Shown here in pieces: positions 2,305 through 38,189 of a stretch of 64,000 nt of DNA. This stretch comes from Podarcis cretensis (taxonomy: Eukaryota): NCBI GenBank assembly GCA_951804945.1, contig OX638159.1:61814001-61878000 (forward strand). Direction: 5' to 3'. The notes under the pieces are model-generated. The model worked only from the letters and a program-made list of their open reading frames with translations. It was not told the DNA's origin and made no database searches. Each line of letters starts with the position of its first letter. The stretch's first letter is position 1. The position numbers and the translations under genes were made by a program.

Positions 2305-2584
2305 ATGTATATAAAGATGGCCACGTTAGCAAACGGACAAGCAGACAATCCCAGCCTCAGTAGCAACCACACTAACCCCAACACCAACGGGCACATGAAC
2401 GGATTAAATCACAGTCCAGGGAACACATCCACCATTCCCATGAAGGACCACGATGCCATCAAGCTCTTTATTGGGCAAATCCCTCGCAACCTGGACGAGA
2501 AGGACCTGAAACCTCTCTTTGAAGAGTTCGGAAAGATCTATGAACTGACGGTGCTGAAGGACAGGTTTACTGGCATGCACAAAG
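2305..2584 (+). CDS. CELF4: CELF4 (CUGBP Elav-like family member 4) coding exon 1: N-terminus and first part of RRM1
   Basis: Translates [94 protein letters not shown]. The [15 protein letters not shown]-terminus is the one I recognise for CELF4, and KLFIGQIP is RNP2 of CELF RRM1. Similarity stops at AAAG|GTGAGG (phase-1 donor at 2585). A second in-frame ATG lies at 2317. Confidence 0.95.
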
Positions 2585-2857
2585 GTGAGGTCCGCTTCTT
2601 AACTTTCCCCCTTATTCGCAGGGGCTTGGAGGAGGGGAGAGTCCGGGGAAGGAGGTGGTGCTGGTGGGGGGCAGATCCTGCTAGGTTGGAAGCCCATAAA
2701 GAGAGGAGGTGGGGGTGGTGGAAGGCTGATCTCTTATAGATCCGACTGATCTCCAGGGTGGGGGAAGTTTAAACACAAATGTAGCTAGCAAGAGCCCACC
2801 AGGGAAACGAAGGGAGGGACCGCAACTCTCCATAAGGGTGCATGGGAAACGATGGAC

Positions 2858-2886
2858 GGAGCTGTCCAGCGGCTCGTGGTGCTGAA
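2858..2886 (-). promoter_or_regulatory. Non-canonical (long-spacer) RE1/NRSE REST site
   Basis: Minus strand reads TTCAGCACC-acgagccgct-GGACAGCTCC: both RE1 half-sites in the correct order, with a 10-nt instead of 2-nt spacer. Confidence 0.7.
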
Positions 2887-5800
2887 ACGGGCTGCTGCTA
2901 TTTGGGTTGTGCGGACTCTGCCCAAACACAGAGGCGTTGGGTAGGTGGGTGGACGGGAAGGAAGCGGAGAAAGGGAGGTGGTGGTTATTTTGCAGCCGGT
3001 CCCAGACCAGACAACGGCGGACCCTAGAAGAGGGGGGAAATTAATAGGGCGGAGGGGGAGGAAGAGAGCTAAGGAACGGGTGTTAGGATTTTCTGCTCTT
3101 TTGCTAAAGAAGTCCTCACCGTGGAATCCCAAAGAAGAAAGAAATCGGCAGTGTTGTGTGTCTCTGTATACTTAGCCAGCTAGATAAAGAGAAGAGAATT
3201 ACTGAGAGGGGAGAAGAGGTTTTTAGCGATGCATCCGGAGCGAAGCATGTGTGGGCTGTTCAGGCATCCACTTCTGGAGACGGGGGTGTGGGGGTATATC
3301 TCACTGGGTCAGCAGCGGAGAGGGGAGCTCAGGAACTTTTTAATGACGGTGATCAGAGTTTCCTTTTTTGAGGGGAGGGATGGAGTGGGGGGGGGGAACC
3401 GTGATGTGGAACCCGTCTGCTTCTTTCTTCGGCTGAAACCTTCCTTCTTATTTTCCTCACTCGCGGGGGTTTGGGATGGAAGTCCACTAGCGTTTCCCTC
3501 CTCCTTTCTTCCACCCGGGTTCCCCCTGCAATGCTTCGGTTTTGTAGTTTAAAGACCACAAAAGGGGAGGAAGTGTATGTTTGTTTGGGGGGGTGGAGAG
3601 TGAGGAGAGGGCTTGCGAAAGGCATGCCAGTGTATCGATCGCGTTGCCTGAAAAGTGGGACTGAAGTGAATAAGTTGGATGCGATTGACCTAAAGGACTG
3701 GTTTAGGCATAAGCAAGTAGATAAAGTCTGGCGGGGGGAAGAACTGCTTTGCTCTACTCGGGGTTTTCTCTGTTTGCTTTTCTCTTATGGGTTTGCCTTT
3801 CCACTTCTAGGTTCAGAAGAGGTAATAATAGTAATAGTAATAATGTAGAATACATGGGAAACTTCAATAAGGGAGAACCAAAATGTGGAAGAGGTGCATG
3901 GGGCTGGGGTGGGGATCTAGCCGCCAGATTTCCCTTCCCACTTCAAATCCCAGAAAAATGCTTGCCAACGTGTTAAGCCAGCCGTGTGTGTCCAGCAGTA
4001 AATCTTCAAAAAGTTAATGGCACGTTTTGAATCCCCCCTCATGCCCCCAATCCGCTAGGGGATAGTTATGCAAATAGAAAGTTATTTTTAAAAGAGGAAG
4101 AGTTGATGTTGCAAAGGGGTGGGGGAAGGGAAAGGGAGAGAGGATGCTGCACAGGAGAAACTCTGGGGGTGGCAACTGACAACTGCCTTTCTTTCCTTCA
4201 CTACAGCCACCCCCCCCCTTCTCTCCTCTGCAGTCACTACAAACCAGAATCTTATTTTGCCATCCATTCAAGCTTTCTGGAAGGTGGGGTTCTTGAGGCT
4301 TAATAAGAGAGGTGTAGATTTGATGGGTAGCTTCATCCCCTTTAGGCGATGTCTTTTATTGTTTTTTGGGTGGTGGTTGTTCTCCACTACCATCAATGCA
4401 CGGAAAGTTTATAAAGCTTTTCTAAGTAAATACAAATTCTACATCAAGAGATTACTTGAAAGGGAAAAAAGAAGGAGAAGGATGTGTGTGTATTTCAAGG
4501 ATCTTTTTATTATTTAACGGTTGGCTCATGGCTCTTTTATTTTCATTTAAGAGAGCACACATGTACACACATATTATAATTATGACAAAGAGTCCTGAAC
4601 AGACGAAAGTCCAATAGATAATACCTGTCCTATTTTGTCTAGGTTTGGGAAGCCAGATGTTAACATTTTAATGACGAAGGAGGTTTCTTGAATCATTTAT
4701 TTATTTAGTTTTAGGCTATTTTATTGTGTGCTTCGTGTAACCCACCCAGACCTCAAGGGATAGGAAGTGCCAGAGAAACTAGCAAATGGGCTTTGTTAGA
4801 ATCCAGAAAACTTGCGCCTCTTTCATTCAGAGAATCTCCATCCCACTCTCCCCGTTAAGCCTTTGCCTTCCCTGGGTTGCTTAGTTTTAGGGCAGAGTCT
4901 TGCTCAAGGCATGCTTAACTTTCACTCCTCGGCATCTTACTGTATTTCAAGGTGAATCGTAAGGACTGTCCAAGTGTCAAGGTATAAGCCCTTCAGGCCA
5001 ATTTGCATAAGTACAAGCTTGTTTAGTAACCAGGTTCATTTTTTAATCTCTCAGAGCAGCGAGGGGAACGTACAGCAGCCAACCCAACCCAATCCCTCTC
5101 ATTATTCATATGGCACGGCAGGAGGATTTACTGTGGTTTCCAAAGGCACCCAGGGCTGAAACTCCTGGCCTGATTTAGCCCATCTGAGAAGAGTCCTCTG
5201 TGATGTTACAGATTTGCTCACTAATCCTGATAAAAATGTGCCTTTGGCTACCTAGTGTGTGTTGGGGGGGGGGGAGGAATTGCTTGCCACTGCTGGTTAA
5301 TTAGTGGAAAGTCAAAAAGCATGACAGGGCTTGGAGAAACAGGATCATATTTATCTTACCATTTTCCCCTGCCTCCCTCTTTTCATGACTGCATTTAAAT
5401 CAGAAACTAATGCAACCATAAGAATCCATACAATTTCCTTCCTTCATCTGCTCTGGTTGCTATACCATTCTCTGCTCATTCACATCCGGTAGTGGGAAGA
5501 AAATGCTTTCCATAGGTGAGGCAGGGACAAATACCTCTAGCGGTACTTATTTGCAGACCTTCCTAGGCAGGTATGTCTCTCACTGAAATAGCTTATGGAA
5601 TGATTGAGAGAAGTGGCTTTGTTTATGAAGCCTGCCACAAACCTCTAAACATTGTACTGTATTAGACTACAGTCACTTATTCAGGGCAGGTAAGTGTGCT
5701 GAAATCCACCGAGTTACTTCAGAGTGCAATGTTGTGGCTGTGTTTGTGTGTGAACGCACACACACCGTTGGGTTTTGTTGTGCCTTGGCTAAAAGGTCTC

Positions 5801-7729
5801 ATATAGATAGTTTGCCGTGCAATCAAACAGATCCTCTTAGAATGAAGACCAATTGAGTTCAACAGGGCTTGCTCCTAGATTAGAAGGGACTCTGTCCACT
5901 TCCTGGGGAGTAAGTCCCATTGTCAGTAGCATAGTAAGAGAGAAAGAAATGGGCATAACTAGTTTAAAGATGCACAGAAAAACTCCCACCAGAGATCTGT
6001 CCTTCTCATTCGGGTTCTAGGAAGGTGAAATGAAATTTAAGATCTGGTAGTTCTATGCAAATTCCAGATAAAATATAATCTGTGTGTCAACTGCTGATTC
6101 GGCTTAGATTGGTAGAGCGCTGTACTCTTTTTTCCTTTTGTTTTTTTTGAGGGGGCAGGAAAGTACTTGAGGAAGGTAGCCCCTGCAGGGATTTTGTTCA
6201 CAGTTTATCTAGATCATTGACAGGCAGACGTCTTGGCAGCTCAAACCATCCCACCCATTTTTGCAACATATACAAACATACAAAGCAAGTTAGCTAATCA
6301 GACGCACTGACAACAAATTCATTCACAACTCCCCCACCCAATTCACGCTTAGCAGAGGCATCTGTTTTAGGTCTGAGTTACTCAGAGGCATAAAGGTTAG
6401 TGGTCTCAGGACAGACATATTATAATGCGTTATCTTTGGAAATAATTTAAGGCCAATTAAGTGGCATTTAAGCCTAATATTTATAAATGAATGAAATCAA
6501 AACAGGACCATCCCAAGTGGTTTTCAATAGTATTTCTTCCTATCCATGCTTGATCCGTAACCAAGGCCCGCAGTGCGTTTTTAACTGGGATATACCATCT
6601 TTTTTTGGTAGTCCTTAGGAAGTCAGGCTAGATCTGGTAGTGAGATTTAGCAAACACAAACACACATACACAGGGTTTAATGGGCTTTTAAAAGCAGAGT
6701 TGTGAGAAGGATCATAAGCATTGAGGACTCCATTACCCTGAAAGATAGGGTGTCCTTTCAAATCGCATCTGAGCAACGCAGCTCATGGAAAATTGTTACT
6801 ATCCATCACCAAGGTGGTGGGGTGCGTGTCTCCCCCACCCCCACAATAAAAGGCCAAACCTCACATTCAGTAAATATGCATAGCTAAAAAGAGGTAATAT
6901 GGGGGAGAATAGTTTATTTCAACTGTCGTCTGTTTCCCTTCTCAGAAACATAGGTCATTTTCGGAGTCGAAAACACCTGGTCTTATAAGTCCACAAATTA
7001 CCCAATTCACAATAGTCTCTTTTATTAGAGAGAAGCCAGAGTGGGAGAGACAGATGTGAATTAAAGCTTTGTTCAACCTCAGTGCAATATCAGTTTTCAG
7101 GTTAGCTGTGAGATTTAGAAGTGCAATGATTGTTAAATTAAGATGCACTGTACGGAGCGATAAAAAAAGACTTGGGGAAATGAAAATGTACTCAGAAAGG
7201 GACACAGCTAAATACAGGTGTTGAATAAATGCCTCCATAATTGAAACATAAGGCTTGCGTGACTGAAAGCAACCTGCTTAGTCTTTAGTTGGGTTGTAAT
7301 CCAGATCGAGTTTCAAAGAGGGAATACACATACACACACAAAACAGCATCAAAGTGGGAGGGGGTAGCATTCTACCTGCAGCCAAAAAGAACCAACTGTT
7401 AAACCAACAAACCACAGTGGGTTAGTTTTATGACAAAGAAATAATAATCCATTTTCCTTCTCCAATCGCAATACCCATGAATGTGGAAGTATGTGGGTTT
7501 GTTTGTTTTTTAGAATGGCAAATGAAGAGCTTCCTTGCCTCACCCTGCCAAAAGTAAAACCTATTTGTGATAGTATTCTAAATAAATATTGTATTCTTAC
7601 TCACCCTTGCATTAATCACTCTAGTAATATTAAAGGTATCCTGGTGCATGTTGTGTGTGTGTGCTTAAAGTTTCTACTTTAATGAATAGTTATCCCACAT
7701 TTTCTCCCTCACATAGGACCTATTGGCAC

Positions 7730-7819
7730 CATAGCTGTCAACTTTTACCTTTTCTTGTGAGGAATCCTATTCAGAATAAGGGAATTTCGCTTAAAAAGGG
7801 GGAAACGTTGACAGCTATG
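7730..7819. mobile_element. 90-bp hAT-type MITE (TIR CATAGCTGTCAAC)
   Basis: Perfect 13-bp TIRs; interior similar to the copy at 19728-19820; TSD not preserved. Confidence 0.75.
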
Positions 7820-8951
7820 CCTATTGCTCTAAGGGAGTTCTCTCAGGTGTTTTATTTGGATACCATAAACATATTTTCTGACTCAGAGATGTGGAGAAAT
7901 TCAAATTATTTTTTGTTATTCCACAATAGCCCACATTCCAGTGCCTCTTATTGGCGGAAGAACATGGGCACGTCAGAGGAGACAGGTAACAGGACAATTG
8001 CCTCCCTGTACCTTGAAGAGAACAAAGGAAAAGAAGGCATGTTCAGACCAATTGGTTGTGGATGTAACAAGGGATGACAATTCTGATTGTGAAAATAAAT
8101 ACTTTAGAGACATAATCACTGCAGCAATTGGCTGCAGATGTTGGGCCTCTCATGTCCTTGCTCTTGGATGTTGAGGAAGGGCCTGTTCCTATATAAATCT
8201 CTCCATTTAAGATAATCAGGGAGGCCATTCTTCAGGAGAGGTATCACCTAGGACTTTAGGATTAGGTACTGATTTTACAAAACACTTTCTGTAGTGATAT
8301 ATGTAGATGCACAGTCCTATTAGACTCCAGGATGAAAGATGGGGGTCTTTCTGTTTAATCTAACTTGCTCCTGGGCTAATTTTAGTATAACAAGTCTCTG
8401 GCTGTTTTAATCACACTTCCTTTCTGTATTATTGATTTTTAATCTATTGTTTCCTCCTTTGAGGAGTTTACAAGGGGGGGGGGAGTGTAACAACAATAAT
8501 GCAGAGAATACGAAGTATAAGAAAGTTTGCAGTGACTTACTCAACATTGCTGAAAGCTGTTGGCATGCAGCAAAGTAGTCTCCATGGAAAGGGTGTGGGG
8601 GAGTTACCATACTTTTGTCGACTGTGGCAAAAAGTTGGTAAGAATTAGTTGGTAGTCCATTGAGAACTGGATAACACTGAGACAAGGGCAGTCCTGATGT
8701 CTGTGGAAGAAATAGCAGGAACTCTGACCTGTTATTCATTGAAAGGTGCAGTCATGTTTCCCAATGCTGGTTTGGAAGTGGTAGTTTGGAAAGCTGTGAC
8801 GTCTTTTGCTTTTAGAAATTGAATGTGCTCCATGAATACTTATGCTTGCCCCACCAAGCAGAGAGGCTTATGACTCCAAAGCAGTTGAGCTAGAATCCCA
8901 TATTTATCAGCTGAGAGCCAACAACAGTTTGGTAATCTTGGGGAAGGGGTA

Positions 8952-8984
<33 letters not shown>

Positions 8985-8989
8985 TAATT

Positions 8990-9273
8990 GTTATTATTTA
9001 TACCCCGCCATCTGGCTGGGTTTCCCCAGCCACTCTGGGCGGCTTCCAACAAAATACAATAGCCTATTAAACACTAAAGCTTCCCTAAACAGGGCTGCCT
9101 TCAGATGTCTTCTAAAAGTCTGGTAGTTGTTTTTCTCTTTAACATCTGGTGGTAGGGTGTTCCACAGGGCGGGTGCCACTACCGAGAAGGCCCTCTGCCT
9201 GGTTCCTTGTAACTTGGCTTCTCACAGCGAGGGAACCACCAGAAGGCCCTCAGCGCTGGACCTCACTGTCCAG
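8990..9273 (-). mobile_element. L2 LINE 3' fragment
   Basis: Minus-strand peptide APALWNTLPPDVKEKNNYQTFRRHLKAALF; same family as 20076-20630; adjacent (TAA)n tract. Confidence 0.8.
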
Positions 9274-11416
9274 TACATTCATTTCCAGTCATTGACTCCA
9301 GACAAATAACAGTTTTATCCTGAACTGGAGGTATCTGTGAATTGTACCCGAGTTTAGATTCAGATTTTACAGTTGCTTCTTGTGGTCATGGTAAATGTTT
9401 CACGTCTTACTACTTGTTGATTCTGGCTTCAGAGCTCATTTGCACAGATAGAGAAACCACTTTGTTCAGCCTTCAGAGTGATGGACCTAGAGGTGCAAAG
9501 TGACCCTCAGCCTTGGTTCAGTCTACCAGAGGAAGTTGTGCAGCCACAAAGAGAGGGATCCAGCTTTCCATTATGGCCATCGGTTTCACTCTTGTGGTGT
9601 CACAAGCACATCCAGAAATTGCAGCTCACAAACTCAGATAAATTCCGCTATATATGTATGACATAATAACTCACACAAACCAAGACCATTCCCAATTCAT
9701 GATGGCTTCACTCCATTAAGCATCAGTTGAGCTGCCTGTCTGGATCTATCATTGCTCATAGATGAGCACGCATTGAATTGTGGTTTCCAGATGCCTCTTT
9801 ACAAACAGTTGTTTACTCTAACATCTGTTAGTGCCGCTTATTATAATTATTTGGATCAGGCTCCTGATTCTTTGGAAATCTTCTTTATGGGGAACCAGAA
9901 TTGTTTCTTGGATTACTGTGTGGCCATTGTTATTCTGGTTGTCACAGATATTTAGGCATATTCAGCGCAGTGTTTGACAATAGCAAAGTCAAACTTTAAC
10001 AGGGCCCAACAATTTATTTGTAGAAACTTCTCCTTTTAGAGATGCTGGTGCTGTGAATCTTCCAGGGCCAAGAACCTGTTTTATGCTTGGAACTCCATTG
10101 TACTGAAATGCTTTTTGTCCCCTTCTAAATGCCTCAAGATATTTCACCTGGACAGGCCAGATGAATCCACCTTGAATTTCACTTGCAACAAAAGTATGTA
10201 GTAACTCTGTGGCAACTGGTAAAGCTTACTTTTAGATTTGTGTCGCTGGCTAGACTGAAAGTTAAAAGAGGAAAGTGTTGCTTTGGTCTGGCTCAGCCCG
10301 GACCTTTTCCACCCAACTTTCATAGCCATACAAATATACAAAAATATGATTGGATGCTGTTCGAAGGGGAGGGGGAGTCTTAGACCCGTCCTCCCAAATG
10401 CTGTTCCGCTTGCTTGCTGCCGCAGTGCCTGGCATGAGCTCAGGAAAGGGTGTCATTCTGGACTTCACATTTGTTTGTGTTTGTCATCTGGTGCCACTGC
10501 TGGGATGCAACTTGCGGGCGAATGCAGTTTTTTATTGTGCATTCATTATACACAAAAGACATCTTCTCTGGGATGGGGAGAGAGAGAAAGAGAGAGAGAA
10601 GTCTTATTATTGCAGCTCCTTAAAATAAAGACGGATGACAACTCAAAGCCTCTTGAATAAAGTGCCCAACCGTATGTAGCGGCTAAAAATAAATCATAAT
10701 CAGCTGGCAAAATGAATGGCGAGACATATAGATATAGACATTGTGTTAGGTTTGTCAAGACGGAGCAACCAAAATATATTGATCAAGGTGAGGGAGGAGG
10801 CAAAATGATAATTAACTGGACTCCAGCAAGATTTTAATTGACAATGACTCCCGTGAACCAGTTCTGGACAGTGTATATAAACTGACCACAATGCAACTTT
10901 ATTGCAAGTTGCTCGCCTTTAATTAATTGTCTCCTTCGTTAAGACTGACTACAGATCAAAGGTTTTAAAGATACTTAGCAGGTTCTTAGTAACGAAGCCT
11001 TCAGATGCATTAGAAATATCCGACAGCTTGGCCAATGAGGCGTACCAATTTCGATCTACCTCATCGTCGTGCATTTATTCCTTCCTCTCTGCTTTAGCAT
11101 GGACAACCTTTGCTTAAACTTTAACTATTTCCTAGAGTAGCTACCAGAGCCTTAGGTGAGGGTGGGGTGGTGACACCGCCACATTGTAGGTGCCAGTTAA
11201 AGGCAATTCTGCAAAAGATTTCCCAGCAAAATTATCGGAAAGGAAATAGCGCAGAAAATACATTTCTAAAATAAGGCAAAGGAAGACAAATGTTGGTACT
11301 TGGAGCCATAACTTCACGTAACACAGTATGCCCTTGCCTGTCTGTGTCTATAGCAACTTGTTTCAACACTAAATCTACAAAAGGTTTATTAGCCAGGCTA
11401 ATGTTGTTCCGATTAA

Positions 11417-11449
<33 letters not shown>

Positions 11450-13814
11450 CTAGTTAAAATGCATATATGGAACTGCTCTTCGTTAGTGGAGATATGGTGC
11501 ACCTATGCATAATTATGCACATTTAGAGATGGTATTTTTCATAGACAGAATCCCAGCAAATACAACTATGTGGCATGTGCAATAGGCAAACTTACAGTTT
11601 AACAGTAAAAGCTAAGGAATATATCAAAAATTGATAATTACATAAATATATCAAATTCACCCAGGTAGAAAACTGCAGGAAAATTTGGGTAAAGTTTTCT
11701 TCTTCTTGGGCTCTTAAAAAGAGGCACTGCAAATCCGTGCAGATTTTACCCACACATTTAACACCCGAAATAATCTGTAGGTTGTGTGGCTTATACTGCA
11801 GGAACAATGGGAAAACAAAGTCACCCACAAAATACCTATCCAGACTCTACATATATTTAAATTACAAACGTGTGCCACATACAGACATAGTTTTGAGTGG
11901 GGGAAAAACACACACATAAGGGATAAAATATTTGTCTACATGTTACGGTGAGTGTTCTAAATGTGGTGTCTGCCCTGTTTAGCACTGAAATTTGGGACAT
12001 TGGCATAATGAAAATAGGATTGTTCATATTCACATATGAATGCTTAAATCCATTAAAGTTTAGACAGTTCTCTCTCATCCTTTCCATGAAATGTTTATAA
12101 GTTTGCAAACTTCAAGCTTAAATCACGAATTAAGCTGGATTTAATACTGTTGAAGTTATTTTTTGATCCCTGCATGCTCAAGAGCACACAGCCGGCTTCT
12201 TAAAAATAAACAGATTTTACATTATTATTATTTTTACAATTATTTTTGATTGCTTGGGTACCGGACAGTGAACGTTGTCATCTTTTAACATGATGTCACA
12301 CTCAAAGCAACACTCCTATATTAATGGATCATGATCCAAAATCCGTTCCTTTTTTCAGAACTGGAAGAGAACTCCTTTTCATTCCAACAGTTTGCATGGA
12401 AGCTCCAGAAACATGAGAGAAAAACATGACTGTGTGTCCATAATGGGCACCTGTAGAGATATGAAAAAAATGTAGATATACAAAATATGCATATTGGCCC
12501 ATAAAATATTTAAGAACTCCCCCCCCCCTCACATGAGCATTAGTAGTATTCTAGGTACAGGTGTGTCCCGCTGGTGCTAAGGGATATGCAGCTGTTTTGC
12601 TCCTTTCTGAAGCGGATTTTGCAGGCTTCGCTCTGTGCGAAAGTGGCAGGTGACTTGAAGGCTGCTGGAGAGCCTTACATGCCAAGTCGAATGTGATACG
12701 TAGCTGTTTGTTCATTATCCTAATTTAATGATACAGTCACACCTAATTAATCCATGTCTGGTTTCCTTGTGTGCTGTGTCTGGGTCCGGGGAAAAGGATA
12801 ATTTCAAAGCTAGCCTGGCTGTTTTTACAGCGCTGTGGGTATCTGGACCTCTGTGTGAGGTTTTTGTCAGCAGCAGGTTTAAAGCCCAAAAGCTTTGCAG
12901 TTTTCAAACGATCTGTGGATTGACTGTATATTCTGGCATTCTCCCCCCCCCCCCCACCCCTGAATGTAGACACACATGAAACATAGAGAGAGAGACATAC
13001 GTAGAAGACCCAAGTCACATATGCACAGAAATAACCCCCCCCCCATCCTTTAAAGCTCAATAGCAATATACAACCCGCTCTTCAAATGCACACACAAATT
13101 TATTTGTTGGTCTTATGCAGTGTGGCTTTCGAAGCAGTCTTCAGGTAATTGTAAGTGCTATAAAACTGCGCATTCTTTCACTGAGAAGGAGATCGTCAAG
13201 CAATCTATCACTTGGGATCTGTGGGAATCTCCTGATTATACAGCTTTTGTGCCAGACTTTAGTTGGCTGATCATCTTAGGGGCAGGGAAAGGAGGGGGTG
13301 ATTCTGAAGCTCTGGAAAGGAGAAGGATACAGTTGCTAGTTAAAGATTTTTTTTGAGGAGGGGGAGGGTATCGCAACACCACCTTACCTGCAACAGCAAT
13401 AGCCGTAAGGTGATAAATGTACCGGCCGTGTTCCTTTAAGGATCTGCGAGCGTTCTAAGGAAGATCCAATCCCAAAGGTGGCCATTTAGCCGTTCATTAT
13501 TAATAGCATCAATAGTTTGGTTGACCAGCCGCACCAGTCCGTGTATATAAAGGGACTGCTGACGGTAACGTTCAAGGAGGGCAGACGATGCAGAATTTAC
13601 AAAATTGCCCACATGTAATATTAATTGCATTGATTGCTTCTAATAATATGGTGAAGTAATGATGTTTTGAAGTGGTCCTTGGAAGTGCTGCAAGAGACAC
13701 AGATACCTTTCTCCTGAGCCAATTGTGTCCGGGCTGGAAACTCCTTGAAAGCTAACCTATGGAAGACTCACAAGCCCTGCTTATTATCCCTTTCCCGTTT
13801 GGAAGCAAAAAAGA

Positions 13815-13856
13815 TCCTTTCTTCCTTCCTTTCTTCCTTCCTTTCTTCCTTCCTTC

Positions 13857-13890
<34 letters not shown>
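13815..13890. repeat. (TTCC)n(TTTC)n microsatellite
   Basis: Direct observation. Confidence 0.95.
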
Positions 13891-14643
13891 CAGCAGTTAG
13901 TGTTTTTTTTAAAAAAATAATAATATTATTTTGCCCAGTTTCACCGCAGACACTGGAGGATGACATCATTTCTGAAGCTCTCCCCACCCTCTAACTTAAA
14001 CAGCTTAAGTTGGAGAGGGAAGAGGCAGATGTTGGCTTTCTTGCCAGCCCCCTCCCACCCGAAAAGTTGAGAACAGAAATATAAGACAGCCCAAAGGCCT
14101 GATCCAAAATGGATTGGATTTTCAAACAATCCTTGTCCCCTCCCTTCGCTTCGCACTTCCATAGAGCATCTGTAGTTTGCAGCGTCCTATCGATCAAGAC
14201 CATAAGTTTGGAACTGTTATGCAAGCTATTATTCATGGGGGAAAGGAACTACCTACAATATGCATCCTGACTGCCTTATACTCTGATAAATCTCATCATA
14301 GCAAGGCTCACTTGCTTTACAGTATACTAACTACTCCCTCTCCAGCAATCCACACCTATCTCAGCACATCATTGCACTCATTCGGTTACCCCATTCAGCT
14401 TGAACAGTCTTACTCTGGCTGCTTAGGATGGTTCATGTTTTACCCTAATTCTCCGGGATACTTTGCTCATATCTTGCTTTAGTTTTCTGGTATAGTCAGC
14501 TCACGTGTATCTTTAGCTGCCCAGGCTAGGTGGCTTGTAACTAACCCTTGTTGACTGGGATGTTCTGCTACTTGTCCTGGACAGACAGTTTGCATGACGC
14601 TCTTTGTTAATTTGACCGGGAGAATGAAAGTGCTTGCTTTTGC

Positions 14644-14644
14644 A

Positions 14645-14705
<61 letters not shown>
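14644..14705. repeat. (GA)n microsatellite
   Basis: Direct observation. Confidence 0.95.
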
Positions 14706-14709
<4 letters not shown>

Positions 14710-16049
14710 GCTCTTGTAAAGCTATTTATTTGAACAAGTGCACTAGCTAGGGATCGGATGCAAGGCTGATTTCTTCCTTTGTTATTTAAAGAAATTTATA
14801 GCCCACTGAAAGCGGCTGATGGAAAAAAATAAAACATACAATATGTGAATGTTTAAACATAAGTCCATAGTGCAAAGGCCTCCTGAAGTAAAATCATTTT
14901 TACTTAGCCTCTGAAATGTGGCAGGGACTGCGCTTGCTTGATTCCTAGTGAGAGAAAATTCCACAGAGTGGGGCTCACTACACAGTTGTCTTTTTGGTCT
15001 ATGGGAAAACCACTCATATGATCTCATTGATGAACTTGAGCTGTGCTGTGAAACATGAACTAAGTTGAAACATGAACTAAGTTGTACACTAGTACAAGAA
15101 TATTGAGGAGACAGGAAGCCACTGCAGAACTTCCTAACCCCTGTCTCATGTTTTGGCAGTAGTCATCTCAGGGAGCACCTGTTGGGGGCAGCTGTGGGAA
15201 AGAACTATTTTGGGATGGAGGGAATCACTGGAATTGATTATCTGGAAAGGTGACAGTGCTGGTACTTAAGTAGCTATGTTATGAGGGGCTCTGGAGATAA
15301 GTCTGGGAGGGAGGGAGGGAGGGAGGGAGGGAGGAAGCTGTTGATGCTCAGGCAATGCCACAGACTGACTTGGAACCCGTTACAATCTTTCCATGTGGTG
15401 GCTCTCACTGGCTGCTTGAATGGGTAGCTTTGGGCCTGGAGCCATAAGAACAATACAAGCTAAAGGCCCATCTATTTCAGCATCCTGTTTCCCCAAGGTG
15501 GCAAACTAGATGGCTCTGGAAAGTCTGCAAGCAGGACATGAATGAAATAGCACTTTATGGAAGCTGTTTCCCAGCAACTGATATTCAGATACAGGATGCC
15601 TCTGACTTTGCAAAGATGGCATTCCCTCGTGTGAATCTGCCTGGGCCCTGTGATCTTCGGGGAAAACTCTTCTCTTGGTTTCTCCACCGTCACAGGCATG
15701 TTTGGTGGGGTCACAGGAGAGAGCCTTCTCAGTGGCTGCTCCCAGACTTTGGAACTAGCCAGCTCCTTCCTTGTTGTCCTTCCATCGGCAGCTGAATACC
15801 ATTTTGTTCCAGCAGACTTTTAGGAACTGACTGTTTTTAAGGAAGGGGGTGGTGCTATTATGTTTTTACTGCTGTTGTTATTCATCTTTTTCAGAAGATT
15901 TGTGTCGTTATATTGTTTTAATTTTATTAGCGTTAAATTACTTTTTAATGATCTTTTTTTCAGTGCTTTTAGCATTTCTATTTTATGCGTGGTTTGTATT
16001 TTTATTTGTAAGTCGTTTTGAGACCCAGCCTGGGGAAAAGGCAGGATAT

Positions 16050-16080
<31 letters not shown>

Positions 16081-18521
16081 CAGAAATTCATTCACTGTGT
16101 ATTTTCAAGCAAACCAATGTAATCCACCAGTTCTGGATTTATGTCCAGCATGAAATTGATCAGATTATGCACTTACTATTTGAATTTGGTAGTGCAGTTA
16201 TGGGTCTAAAAATGCACATGCATTTTTTGTATGGGAGGGGATGCACACAAACTTGTATGTTTTAGCGGGGAAATGCACCAAAAAGCATACAAAAAAACCA
16301 TGTGATTCAGAGCAAGTGCATAAATGCATGCACAATTGTATAATATAAATGCAAGGTTTTGACACGTTATTAAAAACTCTGCGAAAATAAATAGATAGAG
16401 CTAGGTGACTGAATGCATCTGAAACCAACACATGGCAGTAATAGCCTGATCTTTCCTTCCCTAACCCCCATCAATGTTTGCTGGGCCAACTGAGTAGGGT
16501 GGGGTAAGGTGTCACTGTGCTCAGCACAAATGGATATCTGCTCCTGATTAACTCCAGCCATTTAGGCTCAAACTCTGAAAGCCCCCTTGTGGGACACACT
16601 AGAGCATGATGGAACTAATATGTGCATTGATAGATATATATTCGCATGACTTTCTATTGTTTTGTTGCCTCCCGCTTTTTTAGAGAGAGGAGGTATATTA
16701 TGACAGGCTGAATGAGTATGCTCCACCTTTCCTCCAAACACCTCAAGGTGTTGTGCAAAGTTCTCCCTCTCACCATTTTATCTTCACACCAACCCTGTGA
16801 GCTGAGCTAGGCTTCATGGCTTTGTGAGGACTAGAACCCTAGCTGATGCTCCAGCCACTATTCAACACTCTCCACGAACAACAAGGAAGACCCTTTATCT
16901 GCGGTAACTTTCTAATTACTCCTGGTCATTTTTAAATGCATGCACCCTGTGCACTGGTCTCCTCAAGTCATTGACTGCTGGCATGTTGCCTTGAATGGAC
17001 CAGCACATGTAGTAAGTGCATTTTAGATTTACGTGGAAACCTCACAAAGGTAAGGGCATTCCTCCAATGCTAGCTATTGTATAAATCAAGAATAAAAGAA
17101 GAAATCATAGTTGCTTTCGGCAGGAATTCGTATATGCATATCATCGGGGAGAAGCAGCTTTTGCATTCTACAAGCAAGCACAGGAAAAGTTAGCACCAAA
17201 GTGAAACCAAATAAAACCCCAGTCTTTTGCCCTTTGTTGCTTGGTGATGGCTACTGGGATTTCGCAAACTTCTGGGCCTTGTACTCCTGCTGGAATCGCA
17301 AGAGCCTGTAGTGGGAAAAGAATGCTGAAATCCCAGTGTCAGCCCCAGCTGTGACCGCCATTGTATCTGAGGTCTTTAAACATCACAAGGAATTTGTGTC
17401 CGTGAGTATTGTTGAAAGTGCAACTGGACTGTGCTGGTTGATGAGCTTTCCAGAACACAGAACCCCATAATAGTAAGGAAGGGCTGCACAGAGAGGTAGT
17501 ATACCTGGTTTGCAGGTAGAAGGTCTCAGGTTCTCTAGGTGGAGCTAGGGGAGAAACCATGTCTGAAATCTAGATATACCAATAGTCTGACTCGTGTACA
17601 AGGCTGCTTGCTATGTTCCATCCCATGCCACGTTCAAGATGAAAGACACAAAGGGGCAGATCTGAACCCCGCAATTTTCAGTTTAAAAGCATTTAACCCT
17701 TCCACGCGTCCTCCTGCTGCTCCACCGGGAGGAATCCTTCTGCGACGGTTTGCATAAGGACCCGGCACATGTCTGTCAAATCGACGGAGAGGTGACCATG
17801 GGCTTCAGTTAGCTGAAGTTAGCTTTGTCGTTGTGGCAAAACAGCTTCCCGGTTGGCAGGGGTGTATGCCATTGTGCCTGATCCCCGCTCGCGGCAAGTC
17901 CCAGACAAAAGGTGTTATGTAAGGATAGAGCATTATTAGCAGAGGGAAGGGAGAGGCAGAGAGACCTGGAGGAGGAGGGGGAGAGGGGATTTATTTAAAA
18001 GGATCAGGAGAGGGACTTAGTTTCTCAGGGTACCTCCAGATGGCAGCTTTGTATGTTTTCTGCACAGCCCGTATGCGCTGAGCTGGATGTGCAGGACAAA
18101 GACAGTGGCTTGCTGAAGCAAGTCGAGGGGTGGTGGGTGGGGAGGAGGGGTTAAGTGTGATTCATCTGTTATTGCAGGGCCCTGTTTGATCCATCTGCAG
18201 AGAAAGCAGGGAAGGAGCAGAGGCATTGCAGAATTAAATTTCAGGCAACTGTGCACCCCGGAGACCACAGTTATGGGTCTATCTCTCCTTTTCTCTTTCC
18301 ATTTCCCTCTCAGTCTCTCATTTCTCCACTCTTAGGTTCAGTTCTCTGTGTCACAATGCCAACATGCTTTTTTTTAAAAAAAGACGCACTTATCAAAATG
18401 CATCAGTTATTCCCCCCCCCCCAATATTTACATTTCTGCATGAAGTTTTCACTTAATACACACATTTTTTTGCAGAGCCATTTTCCATACCTCGGTGCAA
18501 TTGTGTACACTTTCCCTTCTA

Positions 18522-18934
18522 CAGTGGTACCTTGGGTTAAGTACTCAGTGGCGTAGCGTGGGGGGTGCAGGGGGGGCGGCTGCACCGGGCGCAACATCTG
18601 GGGGTTAGGGAAATCCACGGGTTAGGGGGCGCAAATCCACGGGTTAGGGGGCGCAAATCCATGGGTTAGGGGGTGCAAATTACTTGCCTTGCCCCGGTTG
18701 CTGATAACCCACGCTACGCCACTGTAAGTACTTAATTCGTTTTGGAGGTCCGTTCTTAACCTGAAACTGTTCTTAACCTGAAGCACCCCTTTAGCTAATG
18801 GGGCCTCCTGCTTATGCCGCACCGCCGGAGCACGATTTCAGTTCTCATCCTGAAGCAAAGTTCTTAACCCGAGGTAATATTTCTGGGTTAGCGGAGTCTG
18901 TAACCTGAAGCGTATGTAACTCGAGGTATCACTG
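18522..18934. mobile_element. Tc1/mariner (Tigger/pogo-like) MITE interrupted by a hAT MITE
   Basis: TA|CAGTGGTACCT...AGGTATCACTG|TA; body matches the copies at 28303, 29560, 30986, 43795 and 52317. Confidence 0.85.
18546..18724. mobile_element. 179-bp hAT-type MITE with internal 22-bp G-rich tandem repeat
   Basis: Perfect 17-bp TIR CAGTGGCGTAGCGTGGG; 8-bp TSD TAAGTACT (18538-18545, 18725-18732). Confidence 0.9.
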
Positions 18935-19727
18935 TACTAACATGTTTGTCTCTATGCATGTTTTGAGCCAGTATATGCGTTTTTGTACGCATTGTGAAAT
19001 TTGGAGAAGTTGTGGATATTGAACAATGGCTGTGTTTCAATGTGCATAGAGTTTCAGTAAGTGTGATTTAGGTACGTTCACTGCTTAATGAGGACTGAAT
19101 TAAATTCCTTCCCCATTCCTAAGGAACTGGAAGAGGGTTTTTTTATTTGTTGTTGGAGGAGGAAAATAATCCCCCCCCCAATGTTCAAATATTTTAAGAA
19201 TGAGTTTGTTAGAAGCATCTGCTTTGATCAGTTTAACTGCTAGGCTAAGTTGCTGGATTAAGCTATGAAGGCAATTTGCAATCAATAGTGCAGTAAGTCA
19301 TGGGATGAGTGGGGTAGAAGGAGGGGACTGATTTGGTTTTGGTCATATTCATGCAATAGGAAATGAAGCAAATATGTGGCAGGTGGCCTGTGCCATTTGC
19401 TTACTATTTTCAGTATTTTATACCCCCCCTCCAATTATAGTTCCAAGGTGGCTTACAAATATATATATATGGAACAATTAAAATGCATATAAAAGAAGCT
19501 AAGAGCCACAAAATCACAAAAGCAGCATAAAAACAGGCAGCAGGAGAAAAATTGCATTGAAGAAACTCTGAGAAATAAATACTTTTTGCCCAGCACTGAA
19601 AGGCAAGTAAGAGAAATATCAGGTTAACTGAGTAAGGATGTGAATCCTGGTCTCCCAAATACTGACACTAACCATTACACCACACTGTCTCTTTTTTTAA
19701 TACTAATCTGCAATGGGTGGAGAAGAG

Positions 19728-19820
19728 CATAGTTGTCAACTTTCCCCTTTTCTTGCGAGGAATCCTGTTCGGAATAAGGGGATTTCCCTTTTAAAAAAAA
19801 GGGAAATGTTGATAGCTATG
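19728..19820. mobile_element. 93-bp hAT-type MITE
   Basis: TIRs CATAGTTGTCAAC / GTTGATAGCTATG; 8-bp TSD GAGAAGAG. Confidence 0.85.
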
Positions 19821-20075
19821 GAGAAGAGGGATCCTCACAGAAGCAGAAATTCACGTATTGCCCCTCAAAACTGGCGTTTGTAAGCACCTCGCATCAAAAT
19901 CTAAAACCCATTTTAGTATTAATTGGAATAAAACTCATTTGAGTGAAGAACTGTGTTCAAACATTCAGAAATTGGGAAGGCCGGTTGAAAGCTAAGGGTG
20001 CTTCCTGACTATTGCTACTTTTGGGGTGTGACTCCATCAGCTCGATACATAGGCCTGTAGAGTTTCAAATGTGCT

Positions 20076-20588
20076 CTACCTTTGAAGGTGACCCGGAAAC
20101 TACAACTAATCCAGAATGCGGCAGCTAGACTGGTGACTGGGAGCGGCCACCGAGAACACATAACAGCGGTCTTGAAATACCTACATTGGCTCCCAGTACA
20201 TTTCCAAGCACAATTCAAAGTGTTGGTGCCGACCTTTAAAGCCCTAAATGGCCTCGGCCCAGTAGACCTGAAGGAGCTCTCCACCCCCATCATTCTGCCC
20301 GGACACTGAGGTCCAGTGCTGAGGACCTTCTGGCAGTTCCCTCACTGCGAGAAGCAAAGCTACAGGGAACCAGGCAGAGGGCCTTCTAAGTAGTGGCACC
20401 TGCCCTGTGGAACGCCCTCCCATCAGATGTCAAAGAGAAAAACAACTACCTGACATTTAGAAGACATCTGAAGGCAGCCCTGTTCAGGGAAGTTTTTAAT
20501 GTGTGACATTTTAATGTATTTTTAATCTTTGTTGGAAGCTGCCTAGAGTGGCTGGGGAAACTCAGCCAGATGGGTGGGGTACAAATAA

Positions 20589-20630
<42 letters not shown>
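20076..20630 (+). mobile_element. L2 LINE 3' fragment (ORF2 C-terminus, 3'UTR, (TTA)n tail)
   Basis: Peptide KLQLIQNAAARLVTG..HITAVLKYLHWLPVHFQAQFKVL is the typical post-RT motif of L2-clade ORF2; frameshifted downstream. Confidence 0.85.
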
Positions 20631-20634
<4 letters not shown>

Positions 20635-21828
20635 TCAAAGGACCCAAGGACCCATTTAGTCCAACGCCCTGCAATGCCCCTGTATCACAACAATAGAATC
20701 CCTGCCGATGACCCTCCCACCTCTGTTTAAAAATCTCCCATAAAGGAGAGTGCATCACCTTCCAAGGCAAGTTATTCCACTGTCATCAGAAAGCCCCGTC
20801 CTAATCTTTATTTGGAATCTCATGTCTTGCAATGTTCTCTAACCTCCTCACAAGCAAACCAGAAAGAAAGAAAGCTCATTAAAATGGCCAGTCCCATCGA
20901 ATCCCCAGCCCAACAAATCCTTGTGAATGCTCTGTGAACTTGCCATCTGGAGGTGCCTTGAGTTCCAATCCATGCATTAGCCCAAGAGGTATGCGTCAGG
21001 CCAGTTCATTTTGTGATTTGCAAAGATCGAATCCCTGAACCAAAGTCAGGGGGTACGTCTTCCCATTATTTGCACTGCTGCATTGCATGCTTCTAAGCTT
21101 CCAGAAATGCCTTTAAAATATGCCAAAAAGATGAAGATATATTTGAGGGGAGCACAGCTCAGGGTTAATGAGTAACTCGCTGAACGATCTGTGGGCTGCT
21201 GGCTCTTGCTGCAGCCCTGGTGTCGCCTAACAGTTGGAGGCAAGTCTATCATCTTTTATGCCCTGCTTGTCAGGTTCTGGTGGCAGCTGGCTGAGGTTGG
21301 AAATGATGTGATGAGCTTTGGCGTGATTCAGATAAGCCGTTTTTGCAATCCTATGGAGGTAGCAGGGAGCCACGGTGCTTGGTGGATGGAGCTTGAAATC
21401 TTCTCCTTACCAAATGGAGAGGAGAGCCCAAACCGCTGCCGATACTGGCTTTTTCCAAAAGAGATTACCGTTCATTTTGCACCAAACAGCCCAACTTTTC
21501 CATTAAAGCAAAAAAAGGTTTCTCTCCCTGCTCCCCACTTCACTTTTATTGCATATGTTTATTGCTTCAAAATCCCACCTTCTGCTCCAAGGAGCTGCAG
21601 GTGACACAGATGGTTCTCCCCCTCTATATTTAATCCCCTCAACAACCCTGTGAGGTAGGTTAGGCTGAGAGACAGTGACTGGCCCAAGGTCACCCTTTGA
21701 GCTTCATGGCTGAGCATGGATTTGAACCCTTATTTCCCAGACCCAATCTGACGCTCTTACAGTTTCTCCCTTGTCCTATTTCTGAAAAAGAGTGTATGAT
21801 CTTTCTGGTCTCCCAGCTGTTCTACACT

Positions 21829-22309
21829 TGTTGTTGTTGTTTAGTCATTTAGTCATGTCCGACTCTTCGTGACCCCATGGACCAGAGCACACCAGGCACT
21901 CCTGTCTTCCACTGCCTCCAGCAGCTTGGTCAAATTCATGTTGATAGCTTCAAGAACACTGTCCAACCATCTTGTCCTCTGTCGTCCCCTTCTCCTTGTG
22001 CCCTCAGTCTTTCCCAACACCAGGATCTTTTCCAGGGAGTCTTCTCTTCTCATGAGGTGGACAAAGTACTTGAGCCTCAGCTTCGGGATCTGTCCTTCCA
22101 GTGAGCACTCAGGGCTGATTTCCTTCAGAATGGATAGGTTTGATCTTCTTGCAGTCCATGGGACTCTCAAGAGTCTCCTCCAGCACCATAATTCAAAAGC
22201 ATCAATTCTTCAGTGATCAGCCTTCTTTATGGTCCAGCTCTCACTTCCATACATTACTACTGGGAAAACCATAGCTTTAACTATATGGACCTTTGTCGGC
22301 AAGGTGATG
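21829..22309 (-). mobile_element. RTE-BovB LINE, 5'-truncated
   Basis: Peptides AMVFPVVMYGSESWTIKKAD and RVPWTARRSNLSILKEISPECSLEGQ...LVHGVTKSRT; (CAA)n tail; TSD TCTACACT (21821-21828, 22310-22317). Confidence 0.92.
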
Positions 22310-23509
22310 TCTACACTAGCCTTCCCATTTGTGCTCATTGGGGGGGGGGAAAGAGAAGGCCCACTATACAACCCATCCATGTGTCCCATCCTACCAGTGT
22401 CATCCATCCAGCTTTCTGCCATTGCTAGTGATTTCCTGCTACAGATGCATGCTTGAATGCTTGAATGACCGAGGGGGTGTTAGTGTCTGACTTGAGGCAC
22501 TTTGCCTTCCATGAAAAGCATATGTCTAGCAATGCACCTCTCCCCTAGCAATGCAGATGTCGGGATTGGTAGCAGTCTGCTCCAGGAGTCTCCAGAGATC
22601 AGCATCTTTGAGGTCCTGGAGATTGAGATTGAGACTGTAAAGCAATTTTGCAAGTTAAGGGATCTGTATACAAAAGAATGCTTTTGAAAAGAGATGGGGT
22701 GTGGCTCCCCAGTTGTGGTGATACTCCAATTCCATACCCTCCAACATTTCTCCGAATGGACGTCATAAGGGAAAGTAGGACATTCCAGGATCAAATCGGA
22801 AACTGGTATGGCTTCTCTAAATCAGGGGTGTCCCTGGAAAATAAGGACACTTGGAGGATCTGCAACTCCCATCAGCTCTAGCCAGCATGGCCAATAGTCA
22901 GGGATAGTGGGTGATGTATTTGAGCAGTATCTGGAGAGGCCCTGGCTCTCCATTCTTAGTTTTATAATGACTTTTGGGACATTTGCATCCTCAAATAATT
23001 CTGCATGCCTGTCTCTTGATACATACTTTGTCGGCATGCAAACAAAGTTTAGATTTTCAGGAATGCCCTTAGGCTGATTTATTGATGACCAAAAACTTTG
23101 TTTCTAGTTGCTGATTTTGGCAAATCGTCGTCGTCGTCGTCATCATCATCGTTAGAGCTGCTTTATCATGTGACAATGTGATTTTATTGCTTCAGTTTTA
23201 TTGTTATTTTTTAGAGCTGCTTTGTTAAGGAATTATCCTAAAAGGTTGAGCAGATATAAATGAACTAACAATTGTATTATATGTTCATTACATTTATATT
23301 GTCCCTTTCTGCCATCATGGGACCCAAGGTTTCAGGCATGTGAATGAAAGGTAGCTTCCCATCAGTTCCCATCTAGTTTAGGATTGCCCAAACTGAGTGG
23401 TTCTCCAGGATTTCAGACAGGGGTCTGTCTCACTGCTTTCTTGAAACCCACCTTGGGAGGGTTGAGTTGTTCCTGGCCTGGGCAGGAGTTATAAAATGAA
23501 TCCAATCCA

Positions 23510-23546
<37 letters not shown>

Positions 23547-23843
23547 TACTTACTTACTAACTTATTTCTAGAGATGCTGGAGATGGAACCAGATAGCCTT
23601 TGGCATTTGAAGCTACCTTGAGTGTGATGATACCCTCCTCCATGGCCATACATAGTTATCCATATGGTGGCCAGAGTACTTATGGGGCAATGCCCATAAG
23701 CTATGATGCCATCTTGGTGAAAACCTGTTCCCTTGAGTGCCTGCCCTACCTCCCCCCCCCCAACAATACTTTGGCCCTCTGTGGTTAACACTGAGAGGCC
23801 TGGACCTCATTGACAGGGATTCTCTCTCGTTCTCGCTCTCTTT

Positions 23844-24207
23844 ACAGATAGGTAGCCGTGTTGGTCTGCCATAGTCAAAACAAAATAAAAAAATTCCTTC
23901 CAGTAGCACCTTAAAAACCAACTAAGTTAGTTCTTGGTATGAGCTTTCGTGTGCATGCACACTTCTTCAGATACACTGAAACAGAAGTCACCAGACCCTT
24001 CTATATACTGAGAAGGTGGGGAGGGGTATTACTCAGAAGGGTGGTGGGACTGGGTGATTGGCAGATAGCTGTGATTAGCCTGTTGATGACTCTTAACGAC
24101 CGCAATAGGTCTTACAGGAAAAAGCAAGGGGTGAGAAGGTGAAAAATGGCTTTGTCATGTATAATGAGATAAGAATCCAATGTCTTTGTTCAGACCAGGT
24201 CTCAGAC
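23844..24207 (-). mobile_element. Penelope-like element 3' fragment (ORF C-terminus plus pseudo-LTR)
   Basis: Minus strand 24196-24155 encodes GLNKDIGFLSHYT*, resembling the C-terminus of PLE GIY-YIG domains; hammerhead motif downstream; 12-bp TSD CTCGCTCTCTTT (23832-23843, 24208-24219). Confidence 0.85.
23937..23974 (-). ncRNA. Minimal type I hammerhead ribozyme motif
   Basis: GUAU-CUGAAGA-a-GUGUGCAUGCACAC-GAAA-GC-UC-AUAC: stem I GUAU/AUAC, intact CUGANGA and GAAA cores, stem II hairpin, palindromic AGCU stem III, NUH triplet CUC. Confidence 0.8.
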
Positions 24208-25619
24208 CTCGCTCTCTTTGTGTGTGTGTGACAGAGAGGGAGCAATGTGCATATCTTGCATGCCCTTGCATTTTACAAGCCCAATCTCAACAAGCACACA
24301 GGCCTCCAGGATGGAGGATCAAGAGAGCTGTGTAAGTGTGCGCAGAAACTAGCCTCCCGTTTTTGCATTTGGGGCTTTGCCCTCTTTTGCCATGAGCCTC
24401 ATCCACCACAGGCAAGTGGCCCTCAGAAAATTGCCCAGAAAAGAATGTAACCCTTGGTTGTAAAAAGGTTCTAAGCTGACTTTTGGAATGAGCAGAGGGG
24501 TGGACCTGATGGTTTTGTTTCTTTGTCCAGTTGCTATGATTCTATGGGCACTTTCTGATACAAGAATTGTAGGGTATATCCACAACATTTCATGTGGCAA
24601 TGTAAATGCTATTGGAAACCACAATTGCTTTTGAGTCACCATGACCACATGATGTATGGCCCTCTCACATTATGGGGTGGATACACACAGACACAAAAAT
24701 GCTCGCTTTCATAATGTATTAAGCAACTTTCAAAGTTTCACAGCACAATTTTGTATCGGGGAATTGGACTTTATGAGACTTGATTGCATGAATTGAGCCA
24801 ATATTGATAATCATGGTTACATTTAACAATTAGTCTCACTCGTTTCATCTAGATACAGGCAGCAGCATATTTTGGAATACCATTTTAAATATTTTCTTTT
24901 CTTTAGAATAAAATTTGTAAGCATTAAAAAAAACAACTTGCTGACAATAGTAACAGGCATTTTGCTAAGCCATCATCACCCTTCAAACCTCTTGCATGTA
25001 GCCTCACCCATTTCGCTGAACTTATTCCTTTCTTCCCAGCAAGGCAAATGAATGCTACATTTGCTGCAGCATGATGGTTTGGAATAGGGATATTAATTTC
25101 CATACTTCTGTGAATCATTCCCAGCTTTCTGTTCGAGGACAGCCGAGGAGTTGCTGTTGCTTCGGAAACGGGACCCAGTTGAAAAGCATCTGGGAGCAGA
25201 AGAGCAGATCTATTCAGTGCAGCAGAAATCTCACTCACACACTCAGGGAGGGTCGCTGGAGTGCGCTGTTACTCACAATCAGGTTTTGTAATCAGTTTCA
25301 GCAGGGAAAGTTGGAGAGTTTTCTTTTGAATGCCAGCGGAGCATGATCAACATCTGAAATGCGCTTTCATCTGAATCCCGAGAATCAGTGTGACTCAGTT
25401 TCATCAAACCATGCTGTTTGGTTTGGGATGAACTCAACTGTTGCTCCATCCCTGGCCATTCTAACAACACATAGGAATGAATTGCTTCAATTGGTGCCAT
25501 AAGTGGGCACTTCTTACTTTGCTCCTGATGCTGGTATTTCCTTATTAACAGATGTGATGGTCAACACACCATCTTTTTCTGCATTGAATGCATGCAGAAG
25601 TTCTGTTGTGCCTTGGAGA

Positions 25620-25800
25620 AAGGCTGTATCCCAGTGGCAGAGTTTCTGCTTTGCATGCAGAAGGTTCCAGATTCAATCCCTGTCATCGCAAGCTAGGGCT
25701 AGGAATGGCCCTTCCTGAAACCCTGGTGAGCTGCTGCCAATGAAGACAGGACTGTAATAGATGGAACAATGGTCTAACATGGAATAAGGCAGCTTCCTAT
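25620..25800 (+). mobile_element. Old tRNA(Ala-like)-headed SINE; further fragments near 26130-26230, 26455-26730, 32005-32170 and 45655-45830
   Basis: Degenerate A/B boxes around ttgcatgc, and a shared tail (tagatggaccaatggtctgactc-like) repeated across the window. Confidence 0.5.
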
Positions 25801-26308
25801 ACGCCTATGACACCTCTGCTTGAAGACCTCCAGTTGAGGGAGATCCTACCCAACCCCTCTATGCAATCCGTTCCCTTTTCAAAGTGCTCTTACCATCAGA
25901 ATTTCATCTTTTTTTGCAACTTAAGCTCATGAGGCCCCGTTCTGCCCTCTGGAGCAGTGGTTGTCCCACTCTGGGATGGGGCAAACCAGAACTCAGGCTG
26001 GGTGCAAGGTGAAGATCAGGTGGATAATGGGCAAACTGAGGTGAGGCAAGGTAAGGAAGCTCAGGCTATGTCCTAGAAACACAGAGCTCCAGTGTTGCTT
26101 CAGCAAGGGACAAACTGGCCCCAGGTTATCTGGGACAGATCCCTTCCTGAAACCCTGGACAGCCTCTGCTAATCAGTGTAGACAATATTGAGCCAATGGT
26201 CTGATTCAACAGCAGGTGGTTCCATATGTTCTTCTCTTCCATTATAGACTTAATTAAATATATGTTTCTCCTCTGCCCTAGTGCCCAGTCTCTAAGGGTG
26301 GAATATAG

Positions 26309-26444
26309 CAGTGTTTCCCAACCTTGTGCCTCCAGCTGTTTTTGGACTACAATTCCCATCATCCCTTGCCACTGGTCTTGCTAGTCAGGGATGATGGGAG
26401 TTGTAGTTCAAAAACAGCTGGAGGCACAAGGTTGGGAAACACTG
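26309..26444. mobile_element. 136-bp palindromic hAT (Charlie-like) MITE
   Basis: Long near-perfect inverted arms beginning CAGTGTTTCCCAACCTTGTGCCTCCAGCTG; 8-bp TSD GAATATAG. Confidence 0.9.
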
Positions 26445-28302: not shown

Positions 28303-28527
28303 CAGTGGTACCTCAGATTGCAGACGCTTCAGGTTACATATGCTTCAGGTTACAGACTCTGCTAAACCAGAAATAGTACCTTGGGTTAAGAACTTTGCTT
28401 CAGGATGGGAACAGAAATCGTACAGTGGCGGTGCAGAAGCAGCAGGAGGCCCCATTAGCTAAAGTGGTGCTTCAGGTTAAGAACAGACCTCCAGAACGAA
28501 TTAAGTTCTTAACCCGAGGTACCACTG
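28303..28527. mobile_element. Tigger/pogo-like MITE
   Basis: TA|CAGTGGTACCTC...GAGGTACCACTG|TA. Confidence 0.85.
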
Positions 28528-30098: not shown

Positions 30099-30134
<36 letters not shown>

Positions 30135-38116: not shown

Positions 38117-38189
38117 TATCATTATGGAATGGGACATCCCTATTTTCATTGGAGAAATGTTGGAGGGAATGCTCTTGCTTTTGTGGAAG

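Follow-up and report, generated by a model that had tools for sequence, protein, structure and literature searches.

The CELF4 Locus and Its Intron-1 Element

The window, that is, the whole 64,000-nt stretch of DNA analyzed here, contains the first coding exon of CELF4 on the plus strand. An ATG at position 2305 opens the exon 1 CDS, the coding part of which (2305..2584; 93 codons plus 1 nt) encodes the start of RRM1; the best PDB match of its product is human Bruno-like 4, i.e., CELF4 (PDB 2dgp; 8.5e-28). The exon ends at a GT donor (2584|2585). Intron 1 occupies the rest of the window (2585..64000) and continues to window coordinate 127,572, a length of ~125 kb, with exon 2 beginning at 127,573. 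The gene itself extends past the stretch that was scanned (-20 kb to +464 kb). At 2080-2280, just upstream of the start codon, are long tracts of GA and GT dinucleotides, which likely belong to the 5′ UTR or the promoter.

Direct inspection of positions 2886 to 2858 on the minus strand showed TTCAGCACC, followed by a 10-nt spacer and then GGACAGCTCC. This element (2858..2886) is antisense to CELF4 and, given the donor at 2584|2585, lies 274-302 nt into intron 1. These observations bear out the preliminary description, which had reported a minus-strand pair of half-sites with an N10 spacer and a perfect left half, ~270 bp from the exon-1 donor. The element consists of a left half-site matching at 9/9 positions (2878..2886), the spacer (2868..2877), which is 8 nt long at the likely mouse ortholog, and a right half-site ending in CTCC (2858..2867). 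In the published model of Tang et al. (2021; PMC8096226), ZF7-8 of REST contact the left half and ZF3-5 the right half. The right half had also been described as one base from the consensus. It does end in CTCC, but this is not a defect, since CTCC is the commoner form among exact canonical sites genome-wide (50 vs 13 ending in CGCC) and the right half of the CELF4 site is therefore not weakened.

The element stands alone in its surroundings. Its right half is the sole occurrence of GGACAGC[TG]CC from -20 kb to +64 kb, and the left half followed by 0-25 nt and GGACAG has a single match in the 64-kb window, at 2886-2858; none of 100 dinucleotide shuffles of the window yielded such a match. Across the 484 kb scanned (-20 kb to +464 kb), no other long-spacer site combined an exact core with ≤2 mismatches in both halves.

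Long-spacer RE1s as a class are already known, as is the regulation of CELF4 by REST. Mouse ChIP-PET data gave long spacers of 7-11 and showed repression by REST to be strongest from sites near gene starts (Johnson et al., 2008; PMC2573930). ChIP-nexus data gave gaps of 2 or 7-9 and never 3-6, and finger 6 was modelled as flipping out across the long gaps (PMC8096226). Examples of expanded spacers in that work are PCDH HS5-1, with an 8-bp gap, and CELSR3, with gaps of 11-9-11, each of whose 11-bp-gap probes gave one REST shift by EMSA. In a human MPRAduo screen, which used episomal 200-bp fragments, only 8- and 9-bp spacers repressed and other distances did not (Mouri et al., 2022; PMC9903721). 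Four further papers (PMC4430910, PMC2532738, PMC5933800, PMC3320604) did not alter the reading. The range of ~7-10 nt that the preliminary description gave for expanded spacers holds insofar as 10 is within the ChIP-PET range of 7-11; it is outside the ChIP-nexus range of 7-9 and the MPRA range of 8-9.

By the expanded-spacer definition of Johnson 2008, the site has a left half (positions 1-9) that agrees at 9/9 and, downstream on the same strand, a right half (positions 12-21) with an exact GGACAG core. Its 10-nt spacer falls inside the preferred 7-11 and outside 3-6, and a cognate REST with conserved fingers 3-8 is present. It does not fit a canonical 21-bp RE1, as a 2-nt spacer would leave the right core mismatched at 3/6 positions. 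Because its spacer is 10, it also falls outside the subclass defined by reporter and ChIP-nexus data (Mouri 2022, 8-9 bp; Tang 2021, 7-9), to which the likely mouse ortholog would belong. The CELF4 intron-1 site is a real long-spacer RE1.

Spacer Lengths in the Lizard Genome

Counts at other spacer lengths served as the null for each spacer count; a reversed pattern was not used because reversal makes a CpG and gives too few matches. Genome-wide, a 14-base core was found at 440 sites with a spacer of 2, at 58 sites with spacers of 3-6 (14.5 per length), at 162 sites with spacers of 7-9 (54 per length), at 86 sites with a spacer of 10, and at 107 sites with spacers of 11-14 (26.8 per length, a count inflated by tandem repeats at 14). 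The 86 sites at spacer 10 are far above both backgrounds, 3-6 and 11-14 (Poisson P 1e-19 or smaller). The inflation at 14 follows from large tandem arrays at C4:2.42-2.62 Mb and C16:7.82-7.94 Mb, where identical 14-nt-spacer cores recur at intervals of 8-17 kb or more.

When the right half was held strict and the ninth base left free, 153 sites were found genome-wide, and the spectrum was taken from the 100 matches listed (contigs 1-9). Among these 100 of 153, spacers of 7, 8, 9, 10, and 11 occurred 12, 15, 22, 25, and 6 times, respectively, and none occurred at 3-6; other lengths held 0-3 sites each, with the exception of 6 at a spacer of 20. One of the spacer-9 loci is duplicated. The gap at 3-6 agrees with the steric exclusion of REST reported in PMC8096226. 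Ten was the commonest strict long spacer among the matches listed. Its excess over 8 is not significant by itself (25 vs 15, P 0.15), and spacers of 9 and 10 together outnumbered those of 7 and 8 (47 vs 27, P 0.03). A second pattern, counted by hand in 100 matches listed of 149, gave the same shape, with 8, 23, 28, and 9 sites at spacers of 8, 9, 10, and 11, respectively.

Thirty loci from the second pattern were compared with one another, and several of them sit in CpG-rich DNA. The 13 spacer-10 loci among them did not have common flanks; the exceptions within the 30 were the duplicated spacer-9 locus, one pairing with a spacer-9 locus, and one 51-nt match. Given the unshared flanks in the loci sampled, the 10-nt class is not one young repeat. 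A small repeat-like family that carries long-spacer RE1 look-alikes with CTTAA in the spacer was seen separately (L012, L022, C8:73746259) and has two degenerate copies in CELF4 intron 2. Pairs of long-spacer sites no more than ~120 nt apart were also noted, at C3:50237093-50237226, C6:1839388-1839504, C10:2260964-2261030, and C9:75281461-75281575.

Half-Site Composition and the 20-nt Group

The composition of the half-sites varied with the spacer. The full CTCC tail was present in 19/63 spacer-10 cores (those on contigs 1-9 and part of 10, out of 86 genome-wide) vs 50/440 canonical cores (P 2.5e-4), an enrichment that would be expected if a better right half pays for a lost finger-6 contact. 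Among the 100 strict matches listed of 153, the ninth base was C at 10 sites with spacers of 7-8 and at 45 with spacers of 9-11, and another base, mostly T, at 17 and 8 sites, respectively; ninth base and spacer length are thus coupled in this set (Fisher P 2.5e-5). On this base, Tang et al. (PMC8096226) remark only that long-gap sites barely conserve the C.

A smaller group has spacers near 20 nt. Strict sites with spacers of 16-23 numbered 23, including 10 at 20 and 4 at 21, of which tandem canonical pairs account for one at each of these two lengths. A 7-base tail 3′ of the right half was common to 10/12 sites at spacers of 19-21 and to 0/18 at 8-11. The right half with this tail occurred eight times in the genome; in seven cases a left half precedes it by 20-21 nt, and in the eighth the left half is a variant one, spaced 9 nt from it. 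The flanks of the group (L028, L031, L087, L089-L091, L099, L101-L104, L106, L113; spacers 19-21) could not be aligned past ~55 nt. It may be the relic of an old, low-copy repeat or a further, second-turn register of REST. No paper on a 20-bp RE1 spacer class was found in the open-access text searched.

The REST Protein

The lizard genome encodes a REST protein with eight clustered fingers and a C-terminal finger. It was identified through orthologs, with which it shares 80-94% identity over fingers 6-8, and its variable part shares 95% identity with a Podarcis protein and ≤69% with proteins of other named squamates, which marks the genome as that of a lacertid lizard. The comparison covered 120 of 155 orthologs found, all of them long proteins and none from reptiles. 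The linkers from finger 3 to finger 8 were 7 residues long in 120/120 of these non-squamate orthologs, and linkers 6-7 and 7-8 of lizard REST also have 7 residues each. In fingers 5, 6, and 8, the recognition helix was identical to that of the lizard in 120/120 orthologs; in finger 7, this held for 103/120. No structure of the REST fingers was among the PDB matches. Since the linkers are invariant, the longer spacer is not explained by an altered REST, and a lineage-specific change in finger spacing is ruled out as its source.

The Likely Mammalian Counterpart and Conservation of the Site

A first-intron REST ChIP-PET cluster is recorded for mouse Brunol4 (Celf4) in Dataset S4 of Johnson et al. 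(2008; PMC2573930), with 9 PETs in ESC and 17 PETs in NSC. The distances given to the next exon are 398 and 389 nt, and the cluster is ~0.4 kb from exon 1. The motif, at chr18:25,895,934, is filed as 'Canonical RE1' in Datasets S2 and S3 and reads TTCAGCACCACGGCGACGGAC. We parsed this row as the left half, 8 nt, and GGAC, so that four bases of the right half are visible. The distances in the table place exon 1 at the higher coordinate, and the mouse motif is therefore antisense to Celf4. Its left half is 416 nt away from the donor inferred there, compared with 302 nt in the lizard. The bound mouse site, although filed as canonical, is likely not canonical. The preliminary description had proposed looking for a mammalian REST peak and the same half-sites at the orthologous position. 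In the mouse, the peak is at the matching position and the left half is kept; of the right half, the published row displays GGAC only.

Evidence from human cells points the same way. In glioma cells, REST ChIP-qPCR was positive at CELF4 (browser view, chr18 35,140-35,150 kb) and REST siRNA raised CELF4 (Siddaway et al., 2022; PMC8803922). The ChIP forward primer in that paper contains the first 15 bases of the mouse row, i.e., the left half and six spacer bases, and has thirteen bases in common with the lizard site (TTTCAGCACCACG). REST probably binds the matching human CELF4 site. Celf4 was also reported as a REST-associated gene in mouse ESC (McGann et al., 2014; PMC4371837), and no Celf4 rows were found in the searched supplements of PMC4371837 and PMC8096226. 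On the basis of position, orientation, and the 13-base identity, we infer that the mammal and lizard sites are likely one ancestral site, with a spacer of 8 in mammals and 10 here.

In a close relative with ~98% identity, one of four runs covered the site, and both halves and the spacer were intact, with a single additional A next to the left half; two of the four runs did not cover it and one matched an unrelated 36-nt piece. Conservation in this relative is weak evidence, given the ~98% identity and the single covering run. At greater distance, the site was missing from the 1,324 bases of intron compared at a fish CELF4-like locus, and 0/10 CELF loci on metagenome host contigs, all distant (fish-like or invertebrate-like), carried it at the matching place. 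A 10-nt look-alike in L007 was taken as chance because it lies in the coding sequence of a transcript-like contig. A fish CELF4-like locus has, ~1 kb upstream of its start codon (L001:981-1001), a perfect left half, 2 nt, and an inverted perfect right half, that is, convergent half-sites, and the first 13 bases are as in the lizard site. No paper describing the CELF4 intron-1 element was found in the open-access text searched.

Discussion

Taken as a whole, we consider it probable that the long-spacer RE1 was inherited from the mammal-reptile ancestor and that one REST molecule would bind it and help to keep CELF4 low outside neurons. Fingers 7-8 would sit on the left half and fingers 3-5 on the right half, with finger 6 swinging outward to bridge the 10-nt gap. 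REST is a recruiter of co-repressors, and with the start codon no more than ~0.6 kb away, REST bound at the site would deliver them to the CELF4 promoter. For the lizard, both the binding and the silencing are predicted from this analysis. The silencing of CELF4 by REST had been proposed for reptiles in the preliminary description; the mouse site is REST-bound and REST knockdown raises human CELF4, which agrees with the proposal but also means that this control is not specific to reptiles.

The alternative that survives best, though in our view unlikely, is that REST binds the 10-nt form with little silencing and that repression of lizard CELF4 runs mostly through canonical RE1s in intron 2. 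Exact canonical cores do occur in that intron, at window coordinates 131,156, 231,661, and 334,280 (contig C11, minus strand, beyond the window). These three, found in the stretch from -20 kb to +464 kb, compare with 0.14 expected (P 4e-4), and there are several weaker ones too. The core at 131,156 shares a 17-base identity with a site that REST binds in the mouse shortly downstream of exon 2, and mouse Celf4 has three further REST peaks, one of them stronger than the first-intron peak (47 and 41 PETs; PMC2573930). The restriction of repression to 8-9-bp spacers in the human reporter screen (PMC9903721) would also fit. However, at least 129 kb separates the intron-2 cores from the start codon, repression by REST is strongest at promoter-proximal sites (PMC2573930), and it is hard to explain without selection why 10 should be the commonest strict long spacer among the matches listed.

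A more improbable account has the two halves acting separately, each weakly bound or only one of them mattering, such that the 10-nt distance is incidental. REST peaks with only a half-site are indeed common in published data, and in the mouse dataset, where the Celf4 site counts as canonical, its score came from the left part (PMC2573930). Half-sites by themselves, however, gave no repression (PMC9903721) and ~five-fold lower binding in published work. The mouse site has GGAC 8 nt after its left half, and an incidental distance would be at odds with the sharp genome-wide preference in spacing, with none of the strict matches listed at 3-6. That the two halves came together by chance in GC-rich promoter DNA can be set aside almost entirely: although background would be expected to supply ~5% of strict spacer-10 sites (1.5/28), the probability that it would place a strict site with a spacer of 7-11 in any one kilobase is ~7e-6, and the REST-bound mouse counterpart at the same place largely refutes it.

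More tentatively, and with rather less confidence than we place in common descent, we suggest that the ancestral site slid from the 8-nt form of mammals to the 10-nt form of lizards and still works. REST would then have more long-spacer registers than an 8-9 rule permits, with C at the ninth base at spacers of 9-10, T at 7-8, and a small class at 20 nt, a helical turn further along, that carries a 3′ tail of its own. What is new here is that the spacer likely differs between lineages (8 vs 10) despite invariant REST finger linkers, and that the lizard spacer falls outside the lengths with silencing activity in the human reporter screen (8-9). The regulatory link between REST and CELF4, a neuronal RNA-binding protein, is not news, being documented in mammals.

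The lizard and mammal CELF4 sites form a ready-made test of the 8-9-bp silencing rule and, if the sliding-spacer reading is true, a natural experiment on how finger 6 bridges the gap. Should the 10-bp site silence, motif scans and variant-effect predictors built on the 8-9 rule would miss a promoter-proximal class. The coupling of the ninth base to the spacer poses a concrete structural question.

Comparison with Known Systems

The closest known counterpart is the mouse Celf4 site, which occupies the same end of the same intron in the same gene, is likewise antisense, its left half being the one farther from the donor, has an identical left half and next three bases, and is REST-bound in ESC and NSC; it differs in its 8-nt spacer (10 in the lizard) and its distance from the donor (416 vs 302 nt). 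The human CELF4 REST peak has the same left half within the ChIP primer, the right half and the rest of the spacer lying outside it. The sites of Tang et al. (2021), PCDH HS5-1 and CELSR3, resemble the lizard site in their head-to-tail halves and in a gap of >6, to which the finger-6 flip-out model is applicable, whereas the lizard gap of 10 is outside the 7-9 ChIP-nexus classes and the ninth base C is retained. The pairs of long-spacer sites on contigs C3, C6, C10, and C9 resemble the tandem sites described at CELSR3. Finally, the 8- and 9-bp silencers of Mouri et al. (2022) are built on the same half-site definition (positions 1-9 and 12-21) as the lizard CELF4 site, the 10-bp spacer of which is not among the lengths that repressed in that screen.
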